Shown here one piece after another: positions 7,694 through 48,492 of a stretch of DNA of 64,000 bases. The translations under genes were made by a program, and so were the position numbers. The notes under the pieces are model-generated. The model did no database searches. It was not told the DNA's origin and saw nothing but the letters and a program-made list of their open reading frames with translations. How positions within the stretch are numbered: the stretch's first letter is position 1; each line of letters starts with the position of its first letter. This DNA is from Acidimicrobiia bacterium (GTDB lineage: Bacteria; Actinomycetota; Acidimicrobiia; Acidimicrobiales; Bin134), in NCBI GenBank assembly GCA_009842675.1, contig VYEX01000077.1, positions 44,207 through 108,206 of the forward strand, in the 5' to 3' direction.

Positions 7694-7715
7694 TGTCACC
7701 CACCGTGCTTACGGT
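7694..7715 (+). promoter_or_regulatory. TGTCAC-N10-TAnnnT promoter of yraN (RecA-NDp/PafBC-like, leaderless)
   Basis: TGTCAC CCACCGTGCT TACGGT, then 6 nt to ATG 7722. Confidence 0.75.
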
Positions 7716-7721
7716 GCAGGC

Positions 7722-8066
7722 ATGGCATACAGACAGGCGCTGGGCCGTTGGGGCGAAGACCGAGTAGTGCGGTGGTATCGCCGCCAGGGGTTTCAGGTTC
7801 TCGACCGCAACTGGCGGTGCAGCAGGGGCGAATTGGATGTGATCGTGCAACGGGGGTCGATCGTTGCCGTGTGCGAGGTGAAGACCCGGACATCGCTGGC
7901 ATTCGGCGCTCCCGCCGAGGCCGTCGGATGGCAGAAGCAGCGTCGGATACGCCGATTGGCCGCCCAGTGGTTGGCCGAGCAGGAGCGGTCAGGTCCGGTG
8001 CAGCTTCGATTCGACGTTGCCGAGGTGATGGGACGCGAGCTGCGGGTGATCGAAGCGGCGTTTTAG
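7722..8066 (+). CDS. yraN: YraN-family (UPF0102) PD-(D/E)xK nuclease
   Basis: LGRWGE, RNWRCSRGELDVI, EVKTR, RFDV. Confidence 0.93.
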   Translation: MAYRQALGRWGEDRVVRWYRRQGFQVLDRNWRCSRGELDVIVQRGSIVAVCEVKTRTSLAFGAPAEAVGWQKQRRIRRLAAQWLAEQERSGPVQLRFDVAEVMGRELRVIEAAF

Positions 8067-8230
8067 TGGTGTGTCTTGGGTTTAGCGCCGTGGATTGCGA
8101 CGGCAGCGGGGTTCCTCGCAAGGCGCACCGACGCAGCCATACCCGGAGCGTACGGCAAGGAGGAGCAACGCCGCGAGGGGCGTTGATGCCTAGCAGGACA
8201 CGCGCGAATAAACCCAAGACACACCGCTAG
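8064..8230. mobile_element. MITE-like element with 21-bp terminal inverted repeats
   Basis: TAGTGGTGTGTCTTGGGTTTA (8064-8084) vs TAAACCCAAGACACACCGCTA (8209-8229), 1 mismatch; TAG at both ends; internal stem-loops; no transposase. Confidence 0.8.
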
Positions 8231-8355
8231 CCCAGCACGGCCCACAGAATCAGCCCGACGCAAACCAGCACACCCGCGGCCACATACCAGTAGTCGAATC
8301 GAGTCCGCCGCTGCTTTCGTGTGGGATCGAAGCCGATATCCCAGTATGTTCCCAC
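8227..8355 (-). CDS. Small single-pass membrane protein (42 aa; start uncertain)
   Basis: Manual translation MGTYWDIGFDPTRKQRRTRFDYWYVAAGVLVCVGLILWAVLG*: basic patch then a TM helix; shorter than any ORF in the track. Confidence 0.6.
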   Translation of the reverse strand: MGTYWDIGFDPTRKQRRTRFDYWYVAAGVLVCVGLILWAVLG

Positions 8356-8723
8356 TGGTGGCTGCAAGGAAAGCCGTTGTCGCTTGGGTTGTGTTTTTGG
8401 CCTTGTCCGCGGCGGTGGGCGCCGGATGCGGGTCGGGTTCCTCCCCCGAGGTGGAGGCCGGTCCCGATGGGACCCCTGATCCCGTGCTGGTGGCCGGACG
8501 AGGAGTATTCGTTGACCGGTGCGCGTCTTGCCACGACGCCGATGGAAGCGGAACCGGAGACGGTCCCCGCCTGAACCGTGGTCGGCTGTTGCTGGAATAC
8601 CCCGACCCCAGCGGAGCTGTCGCCGTGGTTTCAGAGGGGAAGAACCGCATGCCGGGCTTCGGCGGTCTATTGACCTCGGACGAGATCGACGCGGTCCTCC
8701 GCTATATCAACGAGGTGCTCTGA
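8346..8723 (+). CDS. Monoheme cytochrome c, probable lipoprotein (start uncertain)
   Basis: Signal peptide ending in GAGC, CASCH heme motif, distal Met in RMPGF. Confidence 0.88.
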   Translation: MFPLVAARKAVVAWVVFLALSAAVGAGCGSGSSPEVEAGPDGTPDPVLVAGRGVFVDRCASCHDADGSGTGDGPRLNRGRLLLEYPDPSGAVAVVSEGKNRMPGFGGLLTSDEIDAVLRYINEVL

Positions 8724-8761
8724 GGGGATCTCCCCCTCTGGACGGCCGAAGACGGTGAAGT

Positions 8762-8783
8762 TGTCACCGGCTGTGGCTATGGT
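8762..8783 (+). promoter_or_regulatory. TGTCAC-N10-TAnnnT promoter of comM-dprA
   Basis: TGTCAC CGGCTGTGGC TATGGT, 73 nt before the start codon. Confidence 0.72.
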
Positions 8784-8856
8784 CGGGGAACGCTCGTGAC
8801 CAGCGAAACGGGTCTCTCTTCAGGCACGAGGAATCATCCTCGAGAAAGCACTCGCC

Positions 8857-10392
8857 GTGCTTGCAACTATTCCCGCCTCTGTTCTCGCCGGCATCACCGG
8901 ATATCCGGTTTCCGTGGAGGTCCACGTGTCATCGGGCCTGCCCACCTTCACCGTGGTGGGTCTGCCTGATGCCGCTTGCCGGGAGGCCCGTGACCGGGTT
9001 CGCGCCGCGCTCCTCTCCAGCGGCGTCGATTGGCCCCCGGGCCGCATCACCGTCAACCTGGCCCCCTCGGGCATCCGCAAGGAAGGCTCTGGCCTCGACC
9101 TGGCCATCGCTATGGGAGTTCTGGTTGCCGATGAGCAACTGCCTGCTGAAGCCGTGGGGGATATGGCCTTTCTGGCCGAACTGGGGCTCGACGGTCGGCT
9201 CCGGTCGGTTCCCGGCGTTCTGCCCCAGGTGCGCTCTCTAGAGTCTGCCGCCATTGTCGTAGCCCCGGAGAGCGCCGCGGAGGCTGCGCTGGCCAACGGT
9301 CCTGTGGTAAGGGCGCCGTCCACGCTGGCGGAGCTTGTTTCCGCTCTCCGAGGCGAGGACTCGTGGCCGGAACCGCCCCTGCTGGGGTCGGCTGACTTGC
9401 GGGAGGACGTCGCGGACTTGGCTGATGTGAGAGGACAGCACATGGCCCGTCTGGGCTTGGAGGTGGCTGCTGCCGGTGGGCACCACCTGCTGCTGATCGG
9501 TCCTCCAGGAGCGGGCAAGACCATGCTGGCTCGCCGTCTCCCCGGCCTGCTTCCCCCGTTAGATGAGAACACTGCCATCGAGGCCACCATGGTGCACTCC
9601 GCCGCCGGCTTGGACTTGCCGTCCTCTGGCTTGATTCGCCGAGCTCCTTGGCAGGCGCCCCACCATTCGGCCTCGATGATCGCCTTGGTCGGCGGGGGGA
9701 GCCATACGCTGCGTCCAGGGGCGATCAGCTGTGCCCATGGAGGAGTGCTGTTCTTGGACGAGATGGGGGAGTTCGGCCCTCAAGCCCTGGATGCGCTGCG
9801 CCAGCCCCTTGAGGAAGGGTCGATACGGGTCAACCGGGCCGCGGCTATGGCTACGTTTCCCGCCCGGTTCCTATTGGTAGGGGCGATGAACCCGTGTCCC
9901 TGCGGAGAGCTTGGACAACCTGGCATGTGCCGGTGCACACCAGTGGCCCGCTTGCGCTACGCCCGGCGGCTGAGCGGACCGCTCCTGGATCGATTCGACC
10001 TGAGGATTCATGTAGGCCGGCCGGAGGTGAGTGACCTCTTTGACGCCCCACCGGGTGAATCCTCGGCGCAGGTTCGCGACAGGGTGGATCAGGCACGAGC
10101 TGTCGCCCGCGACCGCGGCGTGGCCTCCAACAGCGAGCTGCCCGATAGTGCGCTGGATCAATTCGCTCCCCTGGACCCAGATGCCAAGAACCTGTTCAGT
10201 CACTCCATTGCCGAGGGCCGTCTTACTGCCCGAGGATTCCAGCGGGTGCGAAGGGTCGCCCTCACCCTGGGCGACTTGGCCGGTCAGGGGCCGCCGCTTA
10301 CCGGCGGCATCGTCGCCCAGGCGCTGTTCATGCGGACTGAGCCGGTCACAGTGGTTCACGATCCATGGAGCTGCTCCAGTGCCCGCCGATGA
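8857..10392 (+). CDS. comM: ComM/YifB-family AAA+ ATPase
   Basis: TVVGLPDAACREARDRVRAAL, GPPGAGKT, LFLDE, AMNPCPCG, SGPLLDRFD. Confidence 0.95.
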   Translation: MLATIPASVLAGITGYPVSVEVHVSSGLPTFTVVGLPDAACREARDRVRAALLSSGVDWPPGRITVNLAPSGIRKEGSGLDLAIAMGVLVADEQLPAEAVGDMAFLAELGLDGRLRSVPGVLPQVRSLESAAIVVAPESAAEAALANGPVVRAPSTLAELVSALRGEDSWPEPPLLGSADLREDVADLADVRGQHMARLGLEVAAAGGHHLLLIGPPGAGKTMLARRLPGLLPPLDENTAIEATMVHSAAGLDLPSSGLIRRAPWQAPHHSASMIALVGGGSHTLRPGAISCAHGGVLFLDEMGEFGPQALDALRQPLEEGSIRVNRAAAMATFPARFLLVGAMNPCPCGELGQPGMCRCTPVARLRYARRLSGPLLDRFDLRIHVGRPEVSDLFDAPPGESSAQVRDRVDQARAVARDRGVASNSELPDSALDQFAPLDPDAKNLFSHSIAEGRLTARGFQRVRRVALTLGDLAGQGPPLTGGIVAQALFMRTEPVTVVHDPWSCSSARR

Positions 10393-11530
10393 GTTCTCCG
10401 TAGCCGGGCCCCATGGCGAAGACGGAGGCGAGCTGCCAGTGGAGGCCTGGCTTGTGGCGCTGGCATCGCTGCCCGCGGTGGGGCCGGCCCGATTGCGGGC
10501 GCTGCTTGAGATCGGGAGCCCGCCCGTGGTGTGGGCCCGCTTGCAGGTGCCGGCATCACCTGAATTGGCCCAGATAGCCGGCAAGCAAGACCTGTACGGC
10601 CAGTGGCAGCGCGCCGCGGCTGGTTTGGATGTGGCGGCATTGTGGGCACGGCACCGCGAATACCGGGTGGGGGTGGCTGCACTGGGCACCCCCGGATACC
10701 CATCCGCTCTGTCCTACGACGTGGATCCGCCCGCGGTCGTGTTTCACAAGGGAGACCCCCAGGTGGTCGGCGGTCCCCGCGTGGCCATAGTCGGGACCCG
10801 CCGATGCACCCGCTACGGCAGTGATGTGGCCTTCGAATTGGGCCGAGACTTGGCCTCGGCCGGCGTGGGCGTCGTCTCCGGACTAGCGCTGGGCATAGAC
10901 GCCGCCGCTCATGCCGGGGCACTGCAAGCCAGAGCAGCCCCACCGATAGCGGTGGTGGGCAACGGCATGGACCGGGTCTATCCCGAGCGCAACCGAGCCC
11001 TGTGGCAAGCGGTGGCCGAACAAGGAGTGCTGTTGGGAGAGGCCCCTTTGGGAGCCCCGCCCGAGCGGTGGCGGTTTCCGGCTCGAAACCGGATCATCGC
11101 CGCGCTGGCCGATGTGGTGGTCGTGGTGGAGTCCCACGCCTCGGGCGGCGCCATGCACACCGTGGCCGAGGCTGCGGCCAGGGATCGAGCGGTGCTGGCG
11201 GTACCCGGTCCGGTCCGCAGCTCGGCATCCGATGGATGCCTCGAATTGCTGGCCGACGGCTGCGCCCCTTGCCGCGACGCCGATGACGTGCTCTTAGTTT
11301 TGGGCCTGTCCGGAGCCGAGACCGCCCCATTGGAAACCCGCCCCGACCCCGGCGATGCCGGGCAGCGAGTGCTGGAGGCACTGGGCTGGCAGCCCGCCGA
11401 TGCCGAGCAGATCAAAGGGCGTACTGGCTTGACCATGTCAGAAGTGGCCGGTGCAGTGGAGGAATTGCGGGTTGCGGGCTGGGTGGCAGTATCGGGCCGC
11501 TGGATAGAGCGGGTGGGCATTCCCCGGTGA
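10379..11530 (+). CDS. dprA: DNA-processing protein DprA (start inferred at GTG 10379)
   Basis: VAIVGTR, VSGLALGIDAAAH, FPARNRIIA, C-terminal winged helix. Confidence 0.95.
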   Translation: MPADEFSVAGPHGEDGGELPVEAWLVALASLPAVGPARLRALLEIGSPPVVWARLQVPASPELAQIAGKQDLYGQWQRAAAGLDVAALWARHREYRVGVAALGTPGYPSALSYDVDPPAVVFHKGDPQVVGGPRVAIVGTRRCTRYGSDVAFELGRDLASAGVGVVSGLALGIDAAAHAGALQARAAPPIAVVGNGMDRVYPERNRALWQAVAEQGVLLGEAPLGAPPERWRFPARNRIIAALADVVVVVESHASGGAMHTVAEAAARDRAVLAVPGPVRSSASDGCLELLADGCAPCRDADDVLLVLGLSGAETAPLETRPDPGDAGQRVLEALGWQPADAEQIKGRTGLTMSEVAGAVEELRVAGWVAVSGRWIERVGIPR

Positions 11531-11558
11531 GTTGGACCACAACCCGTAGTCTGGAGGG

Positions 11559-12470
11559 TTGATGGGGTGGGATCTGGACGCGTTTGCTGCGTCGACCGCT
11601 TCGGTCAGTGACGAAACCGCGGCAATGTACTGCCGCGAAGTAGCCGCGTTCTCCGAATGGCTTGCCGACAGCCGACATGGGTCCGGGACAGCTGATTCCT
11701 GGGATCCCGCTCCCGCAGAGGTCGATCTGCGCATGGTTCGCAGGTATCTGGCCCACCTGAGCAACAGGGGCTATGCCCGCAAGACGGTGGCCCGCAAGGC
11801 CACCTCCCTGCGACGCTATTTCGGTTGGGCGGAGCGCACCGGCCGGGTCGCCGCAGACCCCACCGTAGGGGCGATGACACCGACACGAGAGCGGCGGTTG
11901 CCCCGCGTGCTGCGCGCTGAGGAGCTGGGGACCCTGCTAGATGAGCCGCGTGCCGCAGTGGCCGACGACAGCAGCGCTCGGCAGGCTCGCGACATCGCGG
12001 TGCTGGAGCTGCTCTACGGCAGCGGTCTACGGGTCAGCGAAGTGTGCGCCATGCGGATTGGGGACATTGATCTGTCCCGTCGGCGCCTGATCGTGCACGG
12101 AAAGGGTTCGAAGCAGCGGGTCGTGCCGCTGAGCGAGCCGGCAGCTGTCGCCCTGGAGGAGTGGTTGGACCATGGGCGGCCGGAGATGGCTGATCCATCC
12201 ACAGCCGGTGATGCCGTGTTCGTGAACCTGTACGGGCGACCGCTGAACACCCAGGCCGTGCGGCGGCTCGTCAACCGTCGAGCGAGCACTCAGACCAACC
12301 CCCACGCCCTGCGGCACACGTTCGCCACCCATCTGCTCGACGGTGGGGCCGACCTGAGGCAGGTGCAGGAGCTGTTGGGCCACGCCGATCTGGGGTCCAC
12401 GCAGATATACACCCACGTCAGCCGTGACCGGCTCCGACGGGTGGTGGAGAAGAGCCACCCTCGGGCCTGA
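11559..12470 (+). CDS. xerC: Tyrosine recombinase XerC
   Basis: LYGSGLRVSE, GKGSKQR, HALRHTFATHLL, LLGH...TQIY; position after dprA. Confidence 0.9.
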   Translation: MMGWDLDAFAASTASVSDETAAMYCREVAAFSEWLADSRHGSGTADSWDPAPAEVDLRMVRRYLAHLSNRGYARKTVARKATSLRRYFGWAERTGRVAADPTVGAMTPTRERRLPRVLRAEELGTLLDEPRAAVADDSSARQARDIAVLELLYGSGLRVSEVCAMRIGDIDLSRRRLIVHGKGSKQRVVPLSEPAAVALEEWLDHGRPEMADPSTAGDAVFVNLYGRPLNTQAVRRLVNRRASTQTNPHALRHTFATHLLDGGADLRQVQELLGHADLGSTQIYTHVSRDRLRRVVEKSHPRA

Positions 12471-12536
12471 CAACCGCGGTTTGCCGGTAGTCTGAGAGCC
12501 GGCTTCCCCCCGGCTTTACAAGACTGAGGACAAGCC

Positions 12537-13076
12537 ATGGTGCTGGGAATGCGCATCGGCGGGCTGGCTGCTGTGGCGGTGTCGGCCTGGCTGGCACTCA
12601 GCCCCGCTCAGCCCGCGCCGGAGACGTTCCCACCGCCTGCTCTGAGTGAGGCGGCGCCGTCCCTTGTGGTGTACCGGCCTCCGGTGGACGCCGAGGTTGT
12701 CGATTCCTTTCGACCCCCGGCCCATGTGGGCGCACCGGGCAATCGGGGCTTGGAGTACGACCCCGAGCCGGGCCAGCCGGTATGGGCTTCAGCCGGAGGC
12801 GAAGTGGTGTTCGCCGGTCAAGTGGCCCGCAACCGGTTTGTGACCGTGCTCCACCGCGACGGGCTGCGCACCTCATATGGATACCTGGGCTGGATGGCAG
12901 TTGACGAGGGCGACATGGTGACTCCTGGTCAGTTGCTGGGCACCACATCAGGGCGGTTCTTCTTCAGTGTTCGCATTGGAGACCAATACCTTGATCCTGC
13001 CTTGGTTCTGTCATCGGGGCGCGTGCGGCTGGTACCCCATGGTGAGGCCGTTGGCCGCGGTCGGCTTCCTGCGTAG
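12537..13076 (+). CDS. Secreted M23-family peptidase-like protein
   Basis: Signal peptide, M23-like segment GNRGLEY...VVFAGQV...LRTSY; usual position before rpsB. Confidence 0.75.
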   Translation: MVLGMRIGGLAAVAVSAWLALSPAQPAPETFPPPALSEAAPSLVVYRPPVDAEVVDSFRPPAHVGAPGNRGLEYDPEPGQPVWASAGGEVVFAGQVARNRFVTVLHRDGLRTSYGYLGWMAVDEGDMVTPGQLLGTTSGRFFFSVRIGDQYLDPALVLSSGRVRLVPHGEAVGRGRLPA

Positions 13077-13132
13077 TAAGACGCCCAGACCAATTTGCGG
13101 CCGGACCACTAGGGTTCGAGGCCGTCGTCCGG

Positions 13133-13255
13133 CTATCGTTGTTCCCGGCCTGAAAGCAGTTTCCGGCCGTAGACAAATTCCGCCCGGGGCATCCCACGGT
13201 CGCCAATTGGTGCTGACCCCGGGTCTCGATGAACCGCTGGGAGAGGAGAAACACC
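13133..13255 (+). promoter_or_regulatory. rpsB promoter and structured leader (putative S2 autoregulatory leader)
   Basis: TATCGT -10-like box; stems CGGCC...GGCCG and CCCGGGG...CCCCGGG; SD GAGAGGAG. Confidence 0.45.
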
Positions 13256-14272
13256 ATGGCGCCAGTCGTGACGATGCGTCAGCTGCTCGATGCTGGAGTC
13301 CACTTCGGACACCAGACCCGCCGTTGGAATCCGAAAATGCAGAGGTTCATTTTCGGTGAGCGCAACGGCATCTACATCATCGATCTGACCCAGACGCTCG
13401 CCCATATCGAGGCGGCCTACACCTTTGTTCGCGATCTGGTGGCCAAAGGCGGCCAAGTGCTGTTTGTGGGAACCAAGAAGCAAGCCCAAGACAGCGTGCA
13501 GAGTTACGCCGAGCGTGTGGGCATGCCCTATGTGAATGAGCGTTGGCTGGGTGGTCTCCTGACCAACTTCGAGACAATCTCCAAGCGCATGGGCAAGATG
13601 AAGGAATTCCAGCGGATGCGCAGTTCGGGCGAGCTTGACGTGATGCCCAAGAAGGAGGCGTTGCTCATTTCCCGGGAGTTGGCGAAGCTTGAGCGCAACT
13701 TAAACGGCATTCGCGACCTGACTCGACCTCCCGATGCGGTTTTCGTGCTCGACACGAAAAAGGAACACATCGCGGTAGCCGAGGCCAACAAGCTGAAGCT
13801 GCCGGTAATAGCCGTAGTGGACACCAATTGCGATCCCGATGTCATTCAATTCGTCATCCCTGGAAATGACGATGCGATCCGGTCAGGAGAGCTGATGTGC
13901 CGAATCATCAGCGATGCGGTGCTCGAAGGCCGCTTCATCGCACAGGGAAATGCCTCCGCCAAGTCTCAGCCGACGGAAGAGGCTCCGACGGAAGACGACA
14001 CATCGGCCGCTCCCGCAGACGAAGCTCCGGCGGCTTCGGAGGCCGCTGCCGCAGAAGATTCCTCCGAGGTGGCGGAATCGCAGCCTGATGGGGACGCCCC
14101 GGCGGCTGCTGAGGCCGCTCCCGCAGACGAAGCTCCGGCGGCTTCGGAGGCCGCTGCCGCAGAAGATTCCTCCGAGGTGGCGGAATCGCAGCCTGATGGG
14201 GACGCCCCGGCGGCTGCGTCTGCCGAGCTAGCTGTTGATGCCGAATCGACCGAGCCCCAGGAGCAAGTGTGA
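13256..14272 (+). CDS. rpsB: 30S ribosomal protein S2 with duplicated acidic tail
   Basis: [28 protein letters not shown]. Confidence 0.99.
14005..14217 (+). repeat. In-frame tandem duplication in the rpsB tail (105 bp identical, period 108)
   Basis: Copies start at 14005 and 14113; each encodes [35 protein letters not shown]. Confidence 0.95.
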
Positions 14273-15060
14273 GTTCGTTTACCGCCCAAGACGTCAAGGC
14301 CCTTCGCGATGCCACTGGCGCCGGAATGATGGACTGCAAGCGCGCCCTCACTGAGAATGAGGGCGACATGGAGGCCGCCACCCAATGGCTCCGCGAGAAG
14401 GGCATGGCCAAGGCTGCGGCCCGAGCAGATAGGGCCAGCGACCAGGGAACAGTGGCCCTTGCCGCCGACGGTGAGGCTGCCGCCATCGTCGAGCTTCGCT
14501 GCGAGACAGATTTTTCCGCGAAGGCTGATGACTTCACCTCTATGGCTGAAGAGCTGGCCCAGCTGGTGCTGGCCGAGGGGGAAGACTCGGTGGAGTCTCG
14601 CAAGGCCGAGATCGAGGATCTCAGTCTGGCCAAGAAGGAGAATGTCCGGGTGGGCAAGGTGGTCAAGGTTCAGGCCGCTGATGGGAACATTCTGGACACC
14701 TACCTCCACACCCAGGACGGCCGGGGCACCAGTGCGGTTGTGGTGGAGGCCCGTGGCGTGAGTCAGGAGCTGGCCCATGAGATCGCCCTTCACATTGCCT
14801 TCGCCAAACCCTCGGTCTTGCACCGAGACGATGTCGACCCGGAAGAGGTGGAGAGGGAGCGCGTTGCGCTGACCGAGATGACCAAGGCCGAGGGCAAGCC
14901 TGAACAGGCCTGGGACAAGATCGTCACCGGCCGACTCAGGGCGTGGTACGCAGAGCGGGTGTTGCTGGAACAGGGCATGTTCGGGGAGAAGGAGACTGTG
15001 CAGTCCCGGTTGGGGGACGGCGAGATTGTCCGGTTCGAGCTGGCGGCTATCGGCAGTTAG
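14269..15060 (+). CDS. tsf: Elongation factor Ts
   Basis: [27 protein letters not shown]. Confidence 0.98.
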
Positions 15061-15069
15061 CACAGACCC

Positions 15070-15810
15070 ATGACCAGCGAGCGCACCAAGAGGTCGGGCC
15101 GATGGGACCGAATCGTCTTGAAGCTCTCCGGCGAGGCCTTTGCCGGAGAGGCTGGATACGGCATTGACGGGGAAATCGCCGCGCAGATCGCCAGCGAGAT
15201 CGTCAAGGTCAGGGCCGAGTTCGATGTAGATGTGGCCGTGGTGGTGGGCGGCGGGAACATCTGGCGGGGCATGACCGGAGCGGGCGCGGGAATGGACCGG
15301 GCCCAGGCCGACTACATGGGGATGCTGGCCACTGTCATCAACGCGCTTGCGCTGCAAGACACCCTCGAAAGGCTCAATCAGCCCACTCGGGTGCAGACGG
15401 CCATCGGCATGGCCCAGGTTGCCGAGCCATACATCCGCCGCCGGGCAATTCGACACTTGGAAAAGGGTCGCGTGGTCATTTTCGCCGCTGGCACCGGCAA
15501 TCCGTTCTTCACCACCGATACCGCAGCGGCGCTGCGAGCTGTGGAAATCGAGGCCGGAGTCCTCCTGAAGGGCACCCACAGCGGAACAGACGGGATTTAT
15601 ACCGCCGATCCTCGAACCGATCCCAATGCCGAGAAGCTCGATGAAGTGCAGTACTTGGATGTGCTGTCCCAGGGCCTGAGGGCCATGGACAGCACCGCGG
15701 TCTCTTTGTGCATGGACAACAAGTTGCCCATCGTCGTGTTCGACCTCATGAAGCCGGGAAACGTAAGCGCCATACTCGACGGGCAGTTGATCGGTACTCT
15801 GGTGTCATGA
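15070..15810 (+). CDS. pyrH: UMP kinase
   Basis: [24 protein letters not shown]. Confidence 0.98.
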
Positions 15811-15834
15811 GGGATGCCCCAAGGCATCGAAATA

Positions 15835-16410
15835 ATGACAACCGGCGATGAGTTGACCGATTTAGTGTTGGACGAAGCCGGTGGGCGCATGGACTCCGCC
15901 GTCCATCACACACGCCAGCAGTTCGCCTCCGTCAGAACCGGGCGGGCCTCTCCGGCGCTGTTCGAACGGTTTCTCGTGGAGTACTACGGCACCGAAGTCC
16001 CCTTGCAACAGCTGGCCAGCTTCAGCGTCCCCGAAGCGCAGTTGCTCGTCATCTCCCCGTTCGACAAGAGCTCCATATCGGCCATCGAAAGGGCCATCAT
16101 TCAAGCCGACCTCGGGCTCAATCCCAGCAACGACGGCAATGTTGTGAGGCTCACGTTCCCACCTCTGACCGAAGAGCGCCGCCGCGAGCTCGTCAGATTG
16201 GTCAAGCAGATGGCTGAAGAGGGGCGAGTGGCGATTCGAAACACCCGCCGCAGCAGCCGCCACGACATCGACCAGCTCAGCAAAGACGGGGATGTCTCTG
16301 AGGACATCGCCGCCCGGACCGAGAAGGAGCTCGACCGGCTAACCCACGACCATGAGCAGCTAATAAATGATGCCTTGAGTGTCAAAGAACAAGAGCTGCT
16401 CGAGATCTAG
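15835..16410 (+). CDS. frr: Ribosome recycling factor (alternative start 15814)
   Basis: VRTGRASP, YYGTEVPL, PPLTEERRRELV. Confidence 0.97.
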   Translation: MTTGDELTDLVLDEAGGRMDSAVHHTRQQFASVRTGRASPALFERFLVEYYGTEVPLQQLASFSVPEAQLLVISPFDKSSISAIERAIIQADLGLNPSNDGNVVRLTFPPLTEERRRELVRLVKQMAEEGRVAIRNTRRSSRHDIDQLSKDGDVSEDIAARTEKELDRLTHDHEQLINDALSVKEQELLEI

Positions 16411-16422
16411 CCTGGAGGGGCA

Positions 16423-38735: not shown

Positions 38736-38764
38736 ACCTGCGATCACATTGAGGATTCCCGCCA

Positions 38765-40423: not shown

Positions 40424-40486
40424 GCGCTGACCTGGCCAGCCCTGTCGGCCCAAACCATTGGTTACTGGTGTTGTCAATGGTACGTT

Positions 40487-42946
40487 GTGGTTGTTGTGGC
40501 TACCAAAACCGCTCGAAAGCCCCCTACAAAGCCCAGCGCAAAGTCCAAATCCAAGGCCGGAGCCTCATCGGACAGCCGATTGAGGCAGGCATCTGCCGCG
40601 GTCTGGGCCAGACACCGCGCCGACATCATCGCCGTGGGGTTCATCCTCGCCGGGCTGGTGGCGGCATGCGCCGTTTGGGCCGATGTGGCCGGACCGTTCG
40701 GCAAAGGCCTCCGGATCATGCTCGGCGCGCTCATTGGCACCGCCAGGTCTGCCATTCCGATTGCTCTGGTGGCCATAGGGGTTGTGCTGTTGCGGGGTCC
40801 CCGCCCCGACGACGAGGAGGATGTGCAACCCGCTTCCGAGTCCTTCGACAAGAACCCCTACACCGACCCGGCCCGGGCCGACTTGGTGCAGGCAGTTCGC
40901 CTCGGCCTCGGCACCTCACTGACGCTCCTGTCGGTGACCGGTCTTCTTCACATAGCCATCGACCGGCCGGGCATCGAGGACCTCGACGGGCTGATGGGGG
41001 CCGGTGGTGCTCTGGGCTTGGCCTTCGGGGGCACGCTGGCCGCGTTCATGGGAGTTTGGGGTGCGAGCCTGGTGGTGGGCGCGTTCGGCCTGCTGGGAAT
41101 GGTGGTGCTCACCCGGGTGTCGCTGCGGGCATGGGCCCGCCGAGTAGACGGTGCCAAGCTCAAAGCCGCCCTGGTCCGGGCCCTTCACTCTGCTACCGGC
41201 ACGCCCGTGCCGGCCGAAAACCCCTCCGTGCACCATCAGGAGAACTGGGCAGAAGCGATTCCGGTCGAACCGGAGGTGCCCGGCTCCGATGTGGTGGTCA
41301 TACCCGAACCGCGCCCGGAACCGGAACCGGTGCCCGCTCCCGAGACCAGTTCGGCACCTGAACCCGAACCCAGTCCTCCTTCTCCCGACCCGGAGCCGGA
41401 TTGGCAGGCACCGGCGATCGTGGGTGAGAAGGGGTCCAAGTCGCCCAAGTCGTCGAAGTGGAAGCTCCCCTCGCTCAAGCTGCTGAGCGGGTCCGATCCC
41501 CAACAGATCAACCAGGATGAGGCCACCCGTAAGGGCGCCGCCCTCGAGCAGGCCCTGGCCGCCCATGATGTGGAGACCAAGCTGGTGGGGATGGTGATCG
41601 GTCCCACCGTGACCCGCTACGAGCTGGAGCTCGCCCCCGGGGTCAAGGTCAGCCGGGTCACCAGCTTGAGCAAGGACATCGCCTATGCGCTGGCCTCGCC
41701 CGACGTCCGCATCCTGGCCCCGATCCCCGGGCGTCAGGCCATCGGCGTGGAGGTTCCCAACCGCGACCGCCAAGTGGTGTCGCTGGGCGGGATCCTGGCG
41801 TCGGCCGAGGCCCGCAAAGCCAACCATCCCTTGGAGGTGGCCATCGGGCGGGACATCAACGCCAAGCCGGTGATGATGGACCTGTCCCGGATGCCTCACA
41901 TTCTCATCGCCGGGGCCACTGGAGCGGGCAAGTCGTCGTGCATCAATTCCATGATCACGTCGGTGCTCATGCGCTCCACCCCCGACCAGGTCCGCATGAT
42001 CCTGGTCGACCCCAAGATGGTGGAGATGGCCCAATACGAGCATGTGCCCCACCTGCTCACCCAGCCGGTAGTCGATCCCAAGAAGGCGGCCAACGCCCTG
42101 GCGTGGGCCTGTCGGGAGATGGACCGTCGCTATGAGGTGCTGGCCTCGGTGGGCGTGCGGGACATCGATGGCTACAACGACGCCTGTGCCCGGGGCGTGT
42201 TCGAGAACGATCGCAAACTGGGGATTGAAGAGTCTGAGCCCAAAGAGCGGATGCCGCTCATTTTGGTGGTGGTGGACGAGCTCTCCGACCTGATGATGGT
42301 GGCCCCCCGCGACGTGGAGGACTCCATCTGCCGGATCGCCCAGAAGGCCCGGGCAGTGGGCATCCACTTGGTGATCGCCACCCAGCGTCCGTCCATCAAC
42401 GTGATCACCGGGGTCATCAAGGCCAACATTCCGGCCCGGCTGGCCTTTGCGGTGTCCAGCCAAACCGATAGCCGGGTGATCCTCGACCAGCAGGGCGCCG
42501 AGCGCTTGGTGGGTCAGGGCGACATGCTCTTGCTCAGCCCCACCTCCACGTCGCCCCAGCGCATACAGGGCGCGTGGGTGACCGAGGAGGAGGTCCGCAA
42601 GGTGGTGGCCGCCTGGCGGCGTCAGGACGTGGTCATGGAGCCACCCAGTCCTTCGGCTTCGGTGACCACCGACGGAGGCGACGGCGACGACGACCCGCTG
42701 GCCCCCGCGCCTTCGACTGCCACGAGCGGGGGCGGCGACGATGACGATGAGCTGCTGGTGCAGGCCATGAGGCTGGTGGTGGAGAGCCAGCTGGGCTCCA
42801 CCTCGATGCTCCAGCGCAAGCTCCGAGTGGGATTCGCCCGAGCCGGGCGTCTGATGGACCTGATGGAGCAGCGGGGCGTGGTGGGGCCATCTGAGGGGTC
42901 GAAAGCACGAGAGGTGCTGATGACCCCCGACGAGCTTCCCTCTTAA
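40487..42946 (+). CDS. ftsK: DNA translocase FtsK (start could be 40496)
   Basis: N-terminal TM helices, AGATGAGKS, VVDELSDLM, LATQRPS-like, gamma domain STSMLQRKL. Confidence 0.97.
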   Translation: MVVVATKTARKPPTKPSAKSKSKAGASSDSRLRQASAAVWARHRADIIAVGFILAGLVAACAVWADVAGPFGKGLRIMLGALIGTARSAIPIALVAIGVVLLRGPRPDDEEDVQPASESFDKNPYTDPARADLVQAVRLGLGTSLTLLSVTGLLHIAIDRPGIEDLDGLMGAGGALGLAFGGTLAAFMGVWGASLVVGAFGLLGMVVLTRVSLRAWARRVDGAKLKAALVRALHSATGTPVPAENPSVHHQENWAEAIPVEPEVPGSDVVVIPEPRPEPEPVPAPETSSAPEPEPSPPSPDPEPDWQAPAIVGEKGSKSPKSSKWKLPSLKLLSGSDPQQINQDEATRKGAALEQALAAHDVETKLVGMVIGPTVTRYELELAPGVKVSRVTSLSKDIAYALASPDVRILAPIPGRQAIGVEVPNRDRQVVSLGGILASAEARKANHPLEVAIGRDINAKPVMMDLSRMPHILIAGATGAGKSSCINSMITSVLMRSTPDQVRMILVDPKMVEMAQYEHVPHLLTQPVVDPKKAANALAWACREMDRRYEVLASVGVRDIDGYNDACARGVFENDRKLGIEESEPKERMPLILVVVDELSDLMMVAPRDVEDSICRIAQKARAVGIHLVIATQRPSINVITGVIKANIPARLAFAVSSQTDSRVILDQQGAERLVGQGDMLLLSPTSTSPQRIQGAWVTEEEVRKVVAAWRRQDVVMEPPSPSASVTTDGGDGDDDPLAPAPSTATSGGGDDDDELLVQAMRLVVESQLGSTSMLQRKLRVGFARAGRLMDLMEQRGVVGPSEGSKAREVLMTPDELPS

Positions 42947-42976
42947 ACGCTGATTGAGCGTCGGTAGTCTCAGGTC

Positions 42977-44029
42977 GTGGCTTTAGCAGCGGTGCTCCTG
43001 GCCGGGGGCCTCCTCGTGCTGGCGGTGGGCGCCGACCAACTGGTCATCGGCGCATCCCGGCTGGCCTTCGCCCGGGGTATCTCGCCCATCGTGATCGGGG
43101 CGCTGGTCATCGGATTCGGCACCAGCGCTCCGGAGATGCTGGTGTCGGGCCTGGCCGCGGCCGACGGCAACGTCGATTTGGGAGTGGGCAACATCGTCGG
43201 CTCCAACGTGGCCAATTTGAGCTTGGTGCTGGGCTTCTCCGCGCTGGTGGCGGCGGTGGCCGTCGGAGGCCGCTTCATCCGCGTGGCCAACAGCACGCTG
43301 TGGCGGGAGGGCGTGGTGTCGCTGGCGGCCGCCGGTTTGTTCTGGGTGCTGGTACAGGACGGATTCGAGCGTTGGGAGGGCTTCGTCCTGCTGGCGGCCT
43401 TCGTGGTGGCCATGGGTGCCATTTTGTGGCGGTCCGCCTACGACCTCAGCGCTCCCGATGTTGTCCACACCGACAAGCCCACCAACCAGCGCACCGAGTT
43501 GGTCCGCACCATTGTTGGGTTGGCGGCCACCGTGGTCGGTGCCCAATTGGCGGTGACCGGTGCGGTGGACATCGCCCAAGAGGTGGGCCTGGGATCGGGG
43601 TTCGTGGGGCTGTCGCTGGTGGCATTCGGCACCTCGCTGCCCGAGCTGATCACCGGGGTGCAGGCCGCCCGCCGCGGCGAGGCCGATCTGCTGGTGGGCA
43701 ACATCTTGGGCTCCAACACGTTCAACAGCCTGCTGGTGAGCGCAGTGGTGGCACTGGTGGGGCCGGGACCGCTGGCCGACGGGAACCTCTCGGGTTTGGC
43801 GGTATGGATCATGATGGGCATCTCCATCGCGGCCTGGATGTTCATGTTCAGGGGCGAAGGCTTGGAGCGGTGGTGGGAGGGTGCCTTCCTTTTGGCCGTG
43901 TACCTGGCGTCGCTGCCGTTTCTTATCTCCGACCATGAAGAAGATGTGGATGCCGTCCCGGTGGTCGAGGCGGTTGAGGTGGCTGAGGCGGTGCCTGTTG
44001 CTGGTGGCTCAGGCATCAATTCCACCTAG
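42977..44029 (+). CDS. Calcium/sodium antiporter (CaCA, YrbG-like)
   Basis: Two alpha repeats: GTSAPE...GNIVGSN and GTSLPE...GNILGSN. Confidence 0.93.
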   Translation: MALAAVLLAGGLLVLAVGADQLVIGASRLAFARGISPIVIGALVIGFGTSAPEMLVSGLAAADGNVDLGVGNIVGSNVANLSLVLGFSALVAAVAVGGRFIRVANSTLWREGVVSLAAAGLFWVLVQDGFERWEGFVLLAAFVVAMGAILWRSAYDLSAPDVVHTDKPTNQRTELVRTIVGLAATVVGAQLAVTGAVDIAQEVGLGSGFVGLSLVAFGTSLPELITGVQAARRGEADLLVGNILGSNTFNSLLVSAVVALVGPGPLADGNLSGLAVWIMMGISIAAWMFMFRGEGLERWWEGAFLLAVYLASLPFLISDHEEDVDAVPVVEAVEVAEAVPVAGGSGINST

Positions 44030-44036
44030 TCTCGGT

Positions 44037-45302
44037 ATGGTGCGCCGGTTTTGGGTTGAGACGCTGGGGTGTCCCAAGAATCAGGTGGACTCCGACAAGA
44101 TCACCGGTTTGCTGGTTGGCGACGGGATGGCCGCGGCCAGTGCCCCCGAAGAAGCCGATCTGGTGGTGGTAAACACCTGCGCCTTCATCGAGGAGGCCCG
44201 CCAGGAGTCGGTGGACACGGTGCTGGCGTTGCGCTCGACGGCCTCCGAAGCCGAATTGGTGGTCACCGGGTGCATGGCCGAGCGCTACGGCGCTGAGCTG
44301 GCTGAAGCCCTGCCTGAGGTCGACCGGGTGGCCGGGTTCGGCGTGCCGGTCAGCATCGGAGCGAAGCCCTCTGATTCGTCGCGGAGCCCGGCGGAGCTTC
44401 CCTCGTTCGACCTATTGAACCTACCTCGGCCGCCGGCGGAAGCACCCTGGGCCTACGTGAAGATCGCCGAGGGCTGCGACCGGCGCTGCGGGTACTGCGC
44501 CATTCCCAGCTTCCGAGGGCCCCAGCGCTCTCGGTCGGCCGAATCCATCGCGGCCGAGGTAGACATGCTCGGAGTGCGGGAGGCAGTGCTGGTGGCCCAA
44601 GACCTGGCCTCCTACGGGCGAGACCAGGGCCAGGGGGAGCGGGGCATCATCCCGCTAGTGGAGTCGCTTTGCCAGCGGGTGGATTGGGTGCGTCTGCTGT
44701 ACCTGTACCCGTCCGATCTCACCGACCCACTAATCGACACCATCTGCTCCACCGATGTGCCCTATTTCGACCTGTCGTTGCAGCACGTATCTAGGCCGCT
44801 GTTGGCCCGAATGCGCCGGTGGGGCGACGGCGATCGCTTCGCCGCCCGTATTGCCGAGATTCGCCAGCGGCAGCCAGAGGCGGTGTTCCGGTCGAACTTC
44901 ATCGTGGGCTATCCCGGCGAGACCGAGGCCGACCACGACGCGCTGCTGGATTTTGTGGCCGATGTGGGCCTCGACTGGTGCGGGTTCTTCACCTACTCCG
45001 CGGAGACGGGCACCTACGCAACCACTCTCGACAACCAGGTGCCCGCCGAGCTGGCCGCGGAGCGCCGTCGGGAGCTGGCCGAGGTCCAGGACGCGATCAC
45101 CGCATCCAAGCGTGACCAACTCATCGGCCGCGAGGTCGAAGTGCTGGTGGATGCCCCCGGCCTGGCCCGCAGCTACCGAGAAGCCCCGGAGATCGACGGC
45201 ATCGTCTCAGTGCCCGATCACTTGGCTGTTGGCCAATTCCACACCGTGCGGGTGACCGACGCAATGGGTCCCGACGTTATGGCCGAGGCGATGGAGCCAT
45301 GA
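44037..45302 (+). CDS. rimO: Ribosomal protein S12 methylthiotransferase RimO
   Basis: TLGCPKNQVDS, NTCAFI, EGCDRRCGYC, EAPEIDG. Confidence 0.96.
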   Translation: MVRRFWVETLGCPKNQVDSDKITGLLVGDGMAAASAPEEADLVVVNTCAFIEEARQESVDTVLALRSTASEAELVVTGCMAERYGAELAEALPEVDRVAGFGVPVSIGAKPSDSSRSPAELPSFDLLNLPRPPAEAPWAYVKIAEGCDRRCGYCAIPSFRGPQRSRSAESIAAEVDMLGVREAVLVAQDLASYGRDQGQGERGIIPLVESLCQRVDWVRLLYLYPSDLTDPLIDTICSTDVPYFDLSLQHVSRPLLARMRRWGDGDRFAARIAEIRQRQPEAVFRSNFIVGYPGETEADHDALLDFVADVGLDWCGFFTYSAETGTYATTLDNQVPAELAAERRRELAEVQDAITASKRDQLIGREVEVLVDAPGLARSYREAPEIDGIVSVPDHLAVGQFHTVRVTDAMGPDVMAEAMEP

Positions 45303-45880
45303 GCCAGGTAGGGGCCTATTCCTGGGCCGATCTGCGCTTGACGGCCAACCTGATCACGCTGGGGCGGATTCTGGTTTCGCCTCTGCTGTTTGTGCTGATC
45401 TTGACCGCCTCGGACAGCGGAGGGACATCGTGGGCCGTGGTGGCCGTGGGCTGGGTGTTGGGCGCCAGCGACTACTACGACGGATGGGTGGCTCGGGCAT
45501 CGGACAGCGTCAGCCGCTGGGGGGCCTTCTTGGACCCGTTGGCCGACAAGGTGATGATCCTGGGAGCGGCCTGGTGCTTCGTGGCCGTGGACCGCCTGTT
45601 CTGGGTTCCGGTGCTAATCATCACGGCGCGGGAGCTCCTGATGAGCGCGGCCCGGACTCGATGGGCTCGAGACGGCCTGTCGCTTCCTGCTCGCTACTCG
45701 GCCAAGCTCAAGACGCTGATGCAAGGCGGGGCGCTCACCGTGGCCGCGCTGCCTCCGCTGGAGAACGTCGACTGGGCGGTGTCGCTGGCCATCTGGCTGG
45801 CGGTGGCCATAACCCTCTACTCCGGCTGGCGCTACTGGGCCGACGGGCGGGCCGGAGCCATTGCCGCCTCAGGCCAGTAG
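45299..45880 (+). CDS. pgsA: CDP-alcohol phosphatidyltransferase (PgsA-like)
   Basis: SDYYDGWVAR...GAFLDPLADK; rimO-pgsA-cinA synteny. Confidence 0.88.
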   Translation: MSQVGAYSWADLRLTANLITLGRILVSPLLFVLILTASDSGGTSWAVVAVGWVLGASDYYDGWVARASDSVSRWGAFLDPLADKVMILGAAWCFVAVDRLFWVPVLIITARELLMSAARTRWARDGLSLPARYSAKLKTLMQGGALTVAALPPLENVDWAVSLAIWLAVAITLYSGWRYWADGRAGAIAASGQ

Positions 45881-45911
45881 CTGAAGGCGGGCGGCGGTAT
45901 AGCCTCCCAGC

Positions 45912-47150
45912 GTGAATTGTGAAGTAATCGCGGTGGGAACCGAGCTCCTGCTCGGCCAGATTGTCGACACCAACTCGTCATGGATCGGCGAGCAGCTGGC
46001 GCTGGCCGGAATCGACTCGCACCACCAGGTCAAGGTGGGCGACAACTTCGATCGCATGCAGGCGGTGCTCAATCAGGCCTTGGATCGCAGCGACTCGGTC
46101 ATCATGTGCGGGGGTCTGGGCCCCACCCAGGACGACATCACCCGGGACGTGATCGCGGCGGCCCTCGGGGTGGAGCTGGTGCGGCGCGACGACATCGTGG
46201 AGCGCATTTCCCGGGTGTTTGGCGGCCGAGGTCGGGCCATGCCCGAGAACAACCTGCGTCAGGCTGACGTGCCCGACGGGGCCGAGGTGCTGCCGCTGAT
46301 GCCCGGCACCGCCCCTGGCTTCAAGGTGGAAACCGGCGGCAAGGCGGTGTACGCCGTGCCTGGCGTGCCCTGGGAGATGCAGCAGATGGTGGGGGAGTGC
46401 GTGCTACCCGACCTCAAGCAAAGGGCGGGGATCACCGCGGTTATCAAGAGCCGCACCCTGCGCACCTGGGGCGATTCCGAGTCGGGTCTGGCCGAGAAAT
46501 TGCACGAAGAGATCGAAAGGCTGGACGAGACCGGCGAGTGCACCATCGCCTTCCTGGCTTCGGGAATGGAGGGCCTCAAGGTGCGGCTTACCGCCAAGGC
46601 TCCCAGCGAGGCCGAGGTGGATGAGATCCTGGCCAACGAGGACCAGATCGTGCGGGGCATCATCGGCGACATCGTGTTCGGGGTGGACGACGAGACCATG
46701 GAGTCGGCCGTGCTCGACGCCTTGCGGCAGCGGGGGTGGACCCTGGCGCTGGCCGAGTCGCTCACCGGTGGTCTGATCGGCTCTCGGCTCACCGCCGTGC
46801 CCGGGGCCAGCGACGTGTTCCGGGGCGGGCTGGTGTCCTACGCCAGCGATGTGAAGTTCGACCTGCTGGACGTGCCCGAGGGCCCGGTGGTGAGCGAAGA
46901 GGCCGTCACCGCCATGGCCCGGGGGGCGGCCAAGCTGCTGGGCGCCGACTGTGCCATTGCCGTCACCGGCGTGGCCGGCCCCGACCCCCTCGACGGCGAA
47001 GACCCCGGCACCGTGTGGATGGCCACTCTGGTCAAAGGCGAAGTGGAGGCCACCAAGGTCAAATTCCCCTTCGACCGCGAGCGCACCCGCCAGTTCACCA
47101 CCGTCTCCATCCTCAACAACCTCCGCATGAGGGTGCTGGCCGGCAAGTAG
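45912..47150 (+). CDS. cinA: CinA (MocF-like domain fused to NMN deamidase PncC)
   Basis: VGTELLLGQIVDTN, GGLGPTQDD, AESLTGG, TGVAGP. Confidence 0.95.
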   Translation: MNCEVIAVGTELLLGQIVDTNSSWIGEQLALAGIDSHHQVKVGDNFDRMQAVLNQALDRSDSVIMCGGLGPTQDDITRDVIAAALGVELVRRDDIVERISRVFGGRGRAMPENNLRQADVPDGAEVLPLMPGTAPGFKVETGGKAVYAVPGVPWEMQQMVGECVLPDLKQRAGITAVIKSRTLRTWGDSESGLAEKLHEEIERLDETGECTIAFLASGMEGLKVRLTAKAPSEAEVDEILANEDQIVRGIIGDIVFGVDDETMESAVLDALRQRGWTLALAESLTGGLIGSRLTAVPGASDVFRGGLVSYASDVKFDLLDVPEGPVVSEEAVTAMARGAAKLLGADCAIAVTGVAGPDPLDGEDPGTVWMATLVKGEVEATKVKFPFDRERTRQFTTVSILNNLRMRVLAGK

Positions 47151-47179
47151 GACGCCCAGACCAATTGGCAGCCGGGCCG

Positions 47180-47956
47180 CTAAACCTCGGGGTTGACGAA
47201 GCCGGCGAGCATCCCGCCGTCGGCGACGAACTCGGCGCCGGTGCTGTAGGAGGAGTCGTCGGAGGCCAGATACATGGCCAGGTGGGCGATTTCGACGGGC
47301 TGGGCGGCCCGGCCCAACGGGAGCATGGCGTAGACCGCGGCCTTTTCCTCTTCGGTAATGGCGTCGCCCAAGGCGTCCTGGGAGGTCATTGGCGTATCCA
47401 CCCCACCGGGGTGGATGGAGTTGACCCGGATGCCGTGTTTGCCCAGTTCCAACGCCGCGTCCTTGGTCATGCCCCGCACCGCGAACTTGGAGGCGGTGTA
47501 GGCCACCGTGCCGCTGTAGCCGGCGATGCCGTTGGTGGAGCTGATGTTGACGATGGAACCGCCGCCGGCTTCGATCATGGCCGGGACGGTGTGCTTCATG
47601 CCCAAGAACACTCCCACCTGGTTGACGTTGATCACCTGCATGTAGTCGTCGAGTGACATGTCCATGAGCGACACGCCGAACACGAGGATCCCGGCGTTGT
47701 TCACCAGCACGTTGGGGGGTCCGTAGAGGCTGACGGTCTCGTCCACCGCCTTCTGCCACGCCCCGGGGTCGGTTACGTCCAAGGGGATGTAGTGGACATT
47801 GGGGCCCACATCGGCGGCTACTGCCTCTCCGAGGTCGTGGAGCACGTCGCCGAACACCACCTTTGCGCCCTCGGCGGCGAACAGCCGCACCTCGGCCTCG
47901 CCCTGGCCCCGGGCGCCGCCGGAGATGAGGGCCACTTTTCCGTCCAGCCTGCCCAT
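47180..47956 (-). CDS. SDR-family oxidoreductase (3-alpha/20-beta-HSD-like)
   Basis: SGGARGQG, NNAG, YTASK. Confidence 0.92.
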   Translation of the reverse strand: MGRLDGKVALISGGARGQGEAEVRLFAAEGAKVVFGDVLHDLGEAVAADVGPNVHYIPLDVTDPGAWQKAVDETVSLYGPPNVLVNNAGILVFGVSLMDMSLDDYMQVINVNQVGVFLGMKHTVPAMIEAGGGSIVNISSTNGIAGYSGTVAYTASKFAVRGMTKDAALELGKHGIRVNSIHPGGVDTPMTSQDALGDAITEEEKAAVYAMLPLGRAAQPVEIAHLAMYLASDDSSYSTGAEFVADGGMLAGFVNPEV

Positions 47957-47957
47957 G

Positions 47958-48362
47958 TCAGTTGTCCTCCATATCGCGATCAAGGCGGAGCGACGCCGAG
48001 TTCATGCAGTAGCGCTCTCCGGTGGGGTGGGGGCCATCGGGGAAGATATGGCCCAGATGTGCTCCACATGATGCACACACTGCCTCGGTGCGGACCATGC
48101 CGTGGCTGCTGTCGGTGTGGCGGTTCACCTTGCCCTCGGCGACCTCCTCGTAGAACGACGGCCAGCCGGTGCCCGAGTCGTACTTGGTGTCAGAAGAGAA
48201 CAGCGGCTCGCCGCACACCCGGCAGCGGTACATACCGTCGTCCTTGCAATCCCAGTACTCGCCGGTGAAGGCCCGCTCGGTGCCGGCTTGCTGGGTGATG
48301 TGGTACTGCTCGGGAGTGAGCCTCTGGCGCAGTTCCTCGTCGGTGAACGTGGTCTCAGACAT
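47958..48362 (-). CDS. msrB: Peptide-methionine (R)-S-oxide reductase
   Basis: [30 protein letters not shown]. Confidence 0.97.
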
Positions 48363-48470
48363 GAGTGCCACCGTATCGGATTTCTGAGGCAAACAGGCAG
48401 GTTGGACCAGCGGGGTACTTGTGAAATTTGACCGCCGTAACTACGCTGATGTCATTCATCGGGGACAAAC

Positions 48471-48492
48471 TGTCACTGGTCGTCTTTAGAGT
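48471..48492 (+). promoter_or_regulatory. TGTCAC-N10-TAnnnT promoter of recA (RecA-NDp/PafBC-like)
   Basis: TGTCAC TGGTCGTCTT TAGAGT, 60 nt before the recA start. Confidence 0.8.

Follow-up and report, generated by a model that had tools for sequence, protein, structure and literature searches.

In a 64,000-nucleotide (nt) stretch of contig VYEX01000077.1 from an Acidimicrobiales bacterium (assembly GCA_009842675.1, contig positions 44,207 to 108,206; this whole stretch is referred to below as the window), the recombination genes yraN, comM-dprA and recA are each preceded by the hexamer TGTCAC, a 10-nt spacer and the box TANNNT. These three sites are very probably promoters that depend on PafBC, the WYL-domain activator of the response to DNA damage in mycobacteria, and would belong to the promoter class described there as RecA-NDp or '-26 element' promoters. 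This reading draws on the geometry of the sites and their genome-wide enrichment, on a pafB-pafC gene pair in the same genome, on the conservation of the sites in relatives and on the genes that follow them.

Three TGTCAC-N10-TANNNT sites in the window

The initial annotation of the window had pointed to three sites of identical spacing, at 7694, 8762 and 48471, and all three are present. TGTCAC-N10-TANNNT has exactly three matches in the window, all on the + strand (7694-7715, 8762-8783 and 48471-48492), against 0.02 expected, and none of 100 shuffles of the window contained three or more. No other gene of the window had been seen to carry the motif, and a scan of the whole window for the looser TGTC-N12-TANNNT likewise returned the same three sites and no others.

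The first site (7694-7715) consists of TGTCAC at 7694-7699, the presumptive -26 element, a 10-nt spacer and TACGGT at 7710-7715, the presumptive -10 box, and is followed by yraN (7722-8066, + strand; UPF0102, PD-(D/E)XK nuclease family; Pfam UPF0102, E 3.8e-27). Since the yraN ATG at 7722 starts only 6 nt past the -10 box, its mRNA is predicted to be leaderless. The second site (8762-8783; TGTCAC, 10-nt spacer, TATGGT) lies upstream of comM (8857-10392, + strand), which encodes a Mg-chelatase-like/MCM-type helicase (Pfam Mg_chelatase, E 2e-83, together with ChlI and Mg_chelatase_C) and begins with a GTG at 8857 after a 73-nt leader counted from the -10 box. Directly downstream of comM is dprA, whose longest open reading frame (ORF; 10031-11530, + strand; Pfam DNA_processg_A, E 5e-60, plus DprA_WH) overlaps that of comM; the true start of dprA is probably near the comM stop, and neither a gap nor a separate promoter motif was seen between the two genes. 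The third site (48471-48492; TGTCAC, 10-nt spacer, TAGAGT) precedes recA (48553-49584, + strand; Pfam RecA, E 2.4e-142), whose GTG at 48553 follows a 60-nt leader after the -10 box that contains the ribosome site GAAGGAGG. Its product shares 83-85% identity with the RecA proteins of Acidimicrobiales genomes. An Rfam scan of the window gave no family at gathering score.

The annotation had likened this geometry to the mycobacterial RecA-NDp promoter, and the comparison holds: a hexamer with a GTC triplet, 10 nt and TANNNT is also the layout of the PafBC motif tGTCgg(N10)tA(N3)T as given in PMC8635444. According to that paper, the motif ends in the -10 element of SigA on its 3′ side, while its 5′ portion (-23 to -28) is named the '-26 element'; positions 5-6 of the hexamer are 'gg' or 'Rg' in M. 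smegmatis, with at most 50% conservation; R46 and R50 of PafB read the two G:C pairs of the GTC triplet; and PafC touches region 4 of sigma, for which the authors use the term 'sigma adaptation' (PMC8635444).

Genome-wide enrichment and promoter architecture

We counted every hexamer at each distance of 4-30 nt before TANNNT throughout the assembly (3.39 Mb, 81 contigs, 64.7% G+C, 95.5% complete). TGTCAC-N10-TANNNT occurs at 27 exact sites, compared with a mean of 0.8 TGTCAC at the other spacings (9-11 excluded), and TGTCAC is the top hexamer with a z of 23.7, the runner-up reaching 5.1. Neither TGTCAG nor TGTCGG gave a peak in the same count, hexamers with one mismatch were barely enriched (TGTCAT 6 versus 1.3, TGTCGC 7 versus 2.6, CGTCAC 4 versus 1.3 and TGTCAG 3 versus 1.0), relaxed -10 boxes were not enriched genome-wide, and TGTCRG-N10-TANNNT was found 6 times as against 15 for its control.

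In a position matrix of the 27 sites GTC is invariant, positions 5-6 of the hexamer are AC in 27/27 and position 7 is never G. The A-rich bases that had been noticed before the window sites recur across the set, with A at -4, -3 and -2 in 13, 17 and 16 of the 27, compared with about 18% in the background. Where a -35 box would stand (about -7 to -2, counted from TGTCAC), the matrix gives G-c-C-a-A-A and not TTGACA.

Judged by their position before genes, the sites appear to be working promoters. A start codon 5-10 nt after the -10 box, opening an ORF of at least 100 amino acids (aa) with high G+C at third codon positions, follows 16/27 sites (18/27 under a looser test for leaderless arrangement), whereas the same test is passed by 883/6627 (13%) of all TANNNT sites. 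The common arrangement in actinobacteria is a leaderless mRNA whose 5′ end lies about 7 nt past a TANNNT box. The TANNNT box is itself scarce in this genome, with 6627 sites on both strands versus the roughly 37,000 that we estimate from composition, and since 13% of them stand 5-10 nt before a good ORF start, some 880 genes may be leaderless. All that three public RNA runs offered were metatranscriptome contigs from relatives with about 90% similarity. One of these contigs spans the promoter and another starts at an adapter; contigs of this kind can show neither transcription starts nor expression.

A pafB-pafC pair in the Pup-proteasome locus

The PafB and PafC proteins at which the annotation had hinted are encoded in the genome. 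Its only two WYL-domain genes stand in tandem directly after pafA, in a Pup-proteasome locus with the order mpa, dop, prcB, prcA, pafA and then the two WYL genes. Among solved structures the first protein has its best match in M. smegmatis PafB (7p5x, E 3.9e-26), and the second in the fused PafBC of A. aurescens, on its PafC half (6sj9, E 4.9e-29), followed by M. smegmatis PafC (7p5x, E 6.5e-22). The PafB of this genome retains the residues that align with R46, R50 and A43, and R46 and R50 are kept in 13/13 PafBs of the genus as well as in 20/20 PafBs outside it. The recognition helix reads (K/R)RAFHRD(M/I/Q)N in 13/13 genus genomes, including the most divergent one at 64% identity, and is preceded by an insertion; the corresponding stretch is RxFERDK in 20/20 PafBs from outside the genus. 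The changes in the genus helix are not what makes AC readable, because lineages outside the genus that use AC-type hexamers keep RxFERDK. No clean rule emerged from a comparison of PafB helix 3 with the AC or RG type of hexamer across 21 PafBs, in which the types were assigned from the phylum hexamer tallies described below.

Taking the individual steps over from the mycobacterial system, we infer PafBC binding, induction by damage and the transcription start points as follows. Single-stranded DNA (ssDNA) arising from DNA damage would activate the PafB-PafC heterodimer, which would bridge the promoter on one side and, on the other, region 4 of housekeeping sigma. The helix-turn-helix of PafB would read the GTC of TGTCAC, centred near -26, by means of two arginines, and sigma would read an ordinary TANNNT -10 box ten bases downstream of TGTCAC. 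Transcription would start about 7 nt after the -10 box, which for most targets would be the start codon and would give a leaderless mRNA. TGTCAC would in this way head about 27 transcription units, a DNA-damage regulon including the cytoplasmic recombination module of yraN, comM-dprA and a ComF-like gene.

Conservation in the genus and across the phylum

Conservation in relatives, on which the initial annotation had made its proposal depend, was found. The motif is enriched in 24/24 relatives from the genus (16-56 sites versus 1-9 in the reversed control, except for G013 with 29). At comM a site lies 76-77 nt before ComM residue 2 in 22/25 genus loci, 20 of them with TGTCAC and two with TGTCGC; of the three remaining loci two have no upstream DNA and one (G005) has no site, so that 22/23 loci with upstream DNA carry it. 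At the yraN position TGTC(A/G)(C/G)-N10-TANNNT stands at the equivalent distance from comM in 20/25 loci. At both genes the spacers vary freely across the genus while both boxes and the distance are kept, which bears out the suggestion that selection has maintained comM's own copy of the motif. The recA 22-mer is identical in G004 and G017 and near-identical in G012, G014 and G021, and relatives also have near-identical 22-mers for the adnA, rmuC, comF-like, ctaA and methylase sites.

Beyond the genus we surveyed recA promoters in 51 of 80 fetched recA loci, scanning 600 nt upstream. One GTC-N12-TANNNT site was found in 40/45 non-control Actinomycetota records (Rubrobacter set aside); the non-actinobacterial controls (0/4) and Rubrobacter (0/2) had none. 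In named genera of the class Actinomycetes 22/22 records have one NGTCNN-N10-TANNNT, with the hexamers TGTCGG (14), TGTCAG (4), TGTCGT (2), CGTCAG (1) and TGTCTG (1). The 13 records titled Acidimicrobiia, Acidimicrobiales, Ilumatobacteraceae or Aquihabitans have TGTCAC in seven cases, other hexamers in four and no site in two. With TGTCAC in 0/22 records of the former group and 7/13 of the latter, TGTCAC is, by these upstream sequences, a true lineage variant of the -26 hexamer, as the annotation had taken it to be.

Among 16 further families of the order, the number of TGTCAC sites ranges from 0 to 34. A sample of 100 additional phylum genomes contains lineages with AC only at hexamer positions 5-6 (for example G193 and G211), with RG only (for example G142, G171, G213 and G132) and with both types (for example G170, G198 and G212), so that this part of the hexamer is lineage-dependent across the phylum; the tallies include five unpublished genomes, and the named examples are all published. 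In G193, a single-contig genome of the same class, the consensus is long (TGTCACACCCCTGTTTTATAAT/TAGAGT; 35 sites versus 4 in the control) and the spacer is far more constrained than in the genome studied here. In another family of the order (L133, G040), four tandem promoter-like TGTCAC/CGTCAC-N10-TACGCT units, with a period of about 84 nt, stand at distances of 66, 148, 232 and 318 nt from comM on its upstream side.

Genes downstream of the motif

Of the 27 units behind the motif, about 17 encode functions that act on DNA. Exact TGTCAC sites precede the repair, recombination and replication genes recA, ruvC-ruvA-ruvB, ligA, dnaX followed by recR, and rmuC, as well as an NAD kinase gene (nadK) followed by recN (TIGR00634, above cut-off) and a gene for a 1063-aa PD-(D/E)XK protein followed by one for a 1109-aa UvrD/PD-(D/E)XK helicase. 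By its domains the last pair looks like AdnAB, and the site before the adnA-like gene would fit the situation in mycobacteria, where adnA is exclusively PafBC-dependent (PMC8682763). The motif is also found in front of genes for the A and then the B subunit of a type IIA topoisomerase (G000:C39:120415-125939); the A subunit scores above the NF004044 cut-off and below that of gyrA, and the pair may be a second, damage-regulated topoisomerase. Nucleases, methylases and defence proteins are represented by three DUF222-HNH endonucleases, three DNA methyltransferases and a TIR-SAVED protein. DUF222-HNH genes are damage-induced in mycobacteria; our literature search found no paper joining the 13E12/DUF222 family with PafBC. 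The recombination module comprises yraN, comM-dprA and a gene for a ComF-family-like phosphoribosyltransferase (TIGR00201, E 1.1e-23, below cut-off) followed by hpf.

Targets without an evident role on DNA are ctaA, punA (purine-nucleoside phosphorylase) followed by a phosphomutase gene (pgm), two ABC systems, a gene for a GAF protein (170 nt away) and an Ile/Leu/Val-rich leader ORF before an ilvB-like gene. At the last of these (G000:C35:90606) the site is followed by 15 codons, a GC-rich inverted repeat and then the gene for a thiamine-pyrophosphate enzyme (ilvB-like), and the short ORF looks like a transcription-attenuation leader; near-identical 22-mers of this site are present in G021 and G004. 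Other small ORFs behind sites that lack a nearby long ORF offered nothing convincing besides this leader.

Relaxing the motif added few credible members, namely uvrA (TGTCAG-N10-TAAGTT, with the start codon 6 nt further on), dnaG and ftsH (both with TGTCGC) and a YgjP-like peptidase gene (CGTCAC). Further one-mismatch sites, before aldolase, major facilitator superfamily, molybdopterin and M16 peptidase genes, may be there by chance.

The target list also bears on the idea that these are constitutive promoters without regulation, in which TGTCAC serves as an upstream element that boosts weak promoters lacking a -35 box. Such an element would suit housekeeping targets that are needed without damage (ligA, dnaX, ctaA and the ilvB-like leader). 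These targets are compatible with PafBC control too, because the basal level of mycobacterial adnA is likewise set by PafBC (PMC8682763). Against constitutive promoters stand the enrichment of repair genes and the homology to a damage-activated system, and we consider them extremely improbable.

Probable loss of LexA

Neither LexA_DNA_bind (PF01726) nor Peptidase_S24 (PF00717) was found in the 95.5%-complete genome. Of 40 genomes from the genus, many of which consist of a single contig, 0/40 gave a LexA match that exceeded the cut-off, one weak match scoring 21.4 bits, and LexA is found in 78/79 other genera of the order (76/77 without two unpublished genomes). Going by these gene searches, the genus has very probably lost LexA. 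Such a loss would explain why, as the annotation had observed, recA has no LexA box: in the 460 nt upstream of recA the best match to TCGAAC-N4-GTTCGA has 4 mismatches in 12 positions. Genome-wide, the SOS box gave 1 exact and 25 one-mismatch matches versus 1 and 5 in a block shuffle, none of them at recA.

With LexA missing from the genus, PafBC would therefore probably be its only recognisable global damage regulator. The proposed regulon resembles the LexA/RecA SOS response in being a global damage regulon that contains recA, ruv, uvrA and recN; it differs in that a LexA gene and an S24 domain are missing and recA lacks an SOS box, and in that control would be exerted by activation and not by release from repression.

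PafBC as the probable reader of the motif

In several respects the system matches the mycobacterial one. Both have a 22-nt bipartite motif with GTC, a 10-nt gap, a SigA-type TANNNT and no -35 box; pafB-pafC follows pafA in the Pup-proteasome locus and arginine is retained at the positions of R46 and R50; and recA and adnAB (here adnAB-like) are among the targets. In contrast to mycobacteria, TGTCAC is here invariant and very strict with a preferred A-tract at -4 to -2, the PafB helix of the genus is RAFHRD(M/I/Q)N with an insertion before it, the LexA partner pathway is missing and most targets are leaderless. WYL-domain, ssDNA-sensing, SOS-independent damage activators also include DriD of Caulobacter and others of its kind. 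DriD is described as a homodimer with another target site and another promoter geometry, whereas the proteins here are a PafB/PafC pair by synteny and best match.

Some observations nevertheless weigh against PafBC control. Hexamer positions 5-6 are AC and not the mycobacterial gg. In PafB of the genus H stands in place of E49, one of M, I or Q in place of K52, and R56 has been exchanged for A in most genomes and for K, T or S elsewhere; since K52 and R56 contact the DNA backbone in M. smegmatis PafB, the binding mode may differ. On the side of the targets, 6/27 have no evident role on DNA and 3/27 belong to no family, and some classic damage genes have no site: uvrB is without a credible one, its only candidate being AGTCGT with a 9-nt spacer 362 nt upstream.

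These deviations of the hexamer and of the PafB helix would be accommodated if another factor, either an alternative sigma or an unrelated activator overlapping the -35 region, read the motif and PafBC were uninvolved, and the sequence alone would be compatible with a different activator at -26. An alternative sigma is hard to reconcile with a -10 box that is the housekeeping TANNNT, common to 883 leaderless genes, and with a box ending 10 nt before the -10, which suits no sigma -35 spacing. As to an unrelated activator, the GTC triplet, the spacing and targets such as recA and adnA match PafBC exactly, and every sampling of PafBC-bearing actinobacteria showed the motif class in front of recA, while the controls and Rubrobacter records had none. 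On balance we regard a reader other than PafBC as very unlikely.

A probable damage regulon that includes a recombination module

The initial annotation had described the three window sites as part of a recombination/competence regulon. That YraN, ComM, DprA and RecA act together in transformation recombination agrees with the literature: according to bioRxiv 10.1101/2024.02.06.579203 and PMC13660472, YraN works with ComM as a D-loop system in transformation, and transformation of Bifidobacterium needs the dprA-comM-yraN cluster. One part of the description stands, in that yraN, comM-dprA, the ComF-like gene and recA all carry the motif. The competence label is too narrow, because comEC is siteless and six targets are metabolic or transport genes. 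Sites at repair and uptake genes, which the annotation had anticipated, are there in part: ruvCAB has one and uvrA has the TGTCAG variant, but none that is credible precedes uvrB, and the 2.5 kb upstream of comEC are free of GTC-type sites. No match to TIGR00416 (radA) was found in the assembly.

A dedicated competence or transformation regulon, in which TGTCAC would co-induce YraN, ComM, DprA, ComF and RecA upon DNA uptake, has in its favour, besides the shared motif and the D-loop system, that comM stands directly behind TGTCNN-N10-TANNNT in 8/40 further phylum genomes, with no such site on the opposite strand in any of these 40 regions. The module makes up only 4/27 units, however, and the others serve general repair, replication or restriction-modification or are unrelated; no pilus or uptake family was matched by any of the 27 targets (three have no family, and no separate search was made for comEA and pilus genes); and members of the regulator family are known to sense DNA damage. 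A dedicated competence regulon thus appears very unlikely to us, and the target set is better described as a putative general DNA-damage regulon that includes the cytoplasmic recombination module. With the competence regulons and the Bifidobacterium module it shares the presence of yraN, comM and dprA, whose motif is common to recA and the ComF-like gene; it differs in that no uptake genes were seen in it and in that its regulator would be a damage sensor and not a competence factor. We found no paper that places this module in the PafBC regulon, and none linking PafBC with dprA or yraN, in a literature search that extended to Acidimicrobiia and whose scope ended before the supplementary target tables for mycobacteria.

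To our knowledge, PafBC has been characterised in mycobacteria only. The cross-species promoter comparison in PMC8635444, as its Fig. 3 legend describes it, covers the class Actinomycetes only. The promoters described here would extend a PafBC-type system to the Acidimicrobiia, with a different and very strict -26 hexamer, and a genus without LexA would offer a natural test of PafBC as a lone damage regulator. The presence of yraN, comM-dprA and the ComF-like gene in the regulon, here and in several other actinobacterial families, would tie a D-loop machinery of transformation, itself defined only recently, to the response to DNA damage. The motif would also be a simple and accurate predictor of damage-inducible promoters in metagenome-assembled genomes of this group.

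A more far-reaching version is that in this LexA-less genus PafBC has become the sole master of the damage response, that its specificity has co-evolved (strict TGTCAC; a helix with His for Glu49 and two backbone contacts lost), and that the whole ComF-like/DprA/ComM/YraN/RecA module has been wired to damage. We offer it tentatively and consider it doubtful as a whole; if it were true, incoming or damaged ssDNA would be handled by one damage-induced pathway, amounting to damage-induced transformation proficiency in an uncultured lineage.

A variant site and a repeat element in the window

The annotation had listed a variant of the motif at 57341, and a probable variant promoter is indeed found there (57341-57361, + strand), composed of TGTCAC, a 9-nt spacer and GACAAT in place of TANNNT. 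Six nucleotides separate GACAAT from an ATG at 57368. TGTCAC-N9-GACAAT-N6-ATG is kept in 5/5 genus genomes compared, and the DNA 5′ of it diverges. With a TANNNT box, spacing 9 is represented genome-wide by 4 TGTCAC sites versus a background of 0.8. The ATG opens a predicted leaderless 99-aa ORF (57368-57667, + strand) whose translation has one hydrophobic segment; it has no Pfam or NCBIfam match and sits upstream of a 360-aa ORF without family and of nrdJ. From its variant promoter alone we infer that this ORF is a member of the regulon. Damage-induced cell-division inhibitors usually take the shape of a small membrane protein under a damage promoter, and it is speculation that the 99-aa protein is one of them.

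Between yraN and a cytochrome c gene, the window contains a 167-nt element (8066-8232) with 21-nt terminal inverted repeats and a predicted fold of -96 kcal/mol, which has no matching Rfam family. At least six more full or partial copies are present in the genome (C54, C12, C74, C56, C37 and C29), and by these features the element looks like a mobile repeat resembling a miniature inverted-repeat transposable element. In G007 and G011 the yraN site is 153 nt nearer to comM, a distance that would fit the element being missing there.

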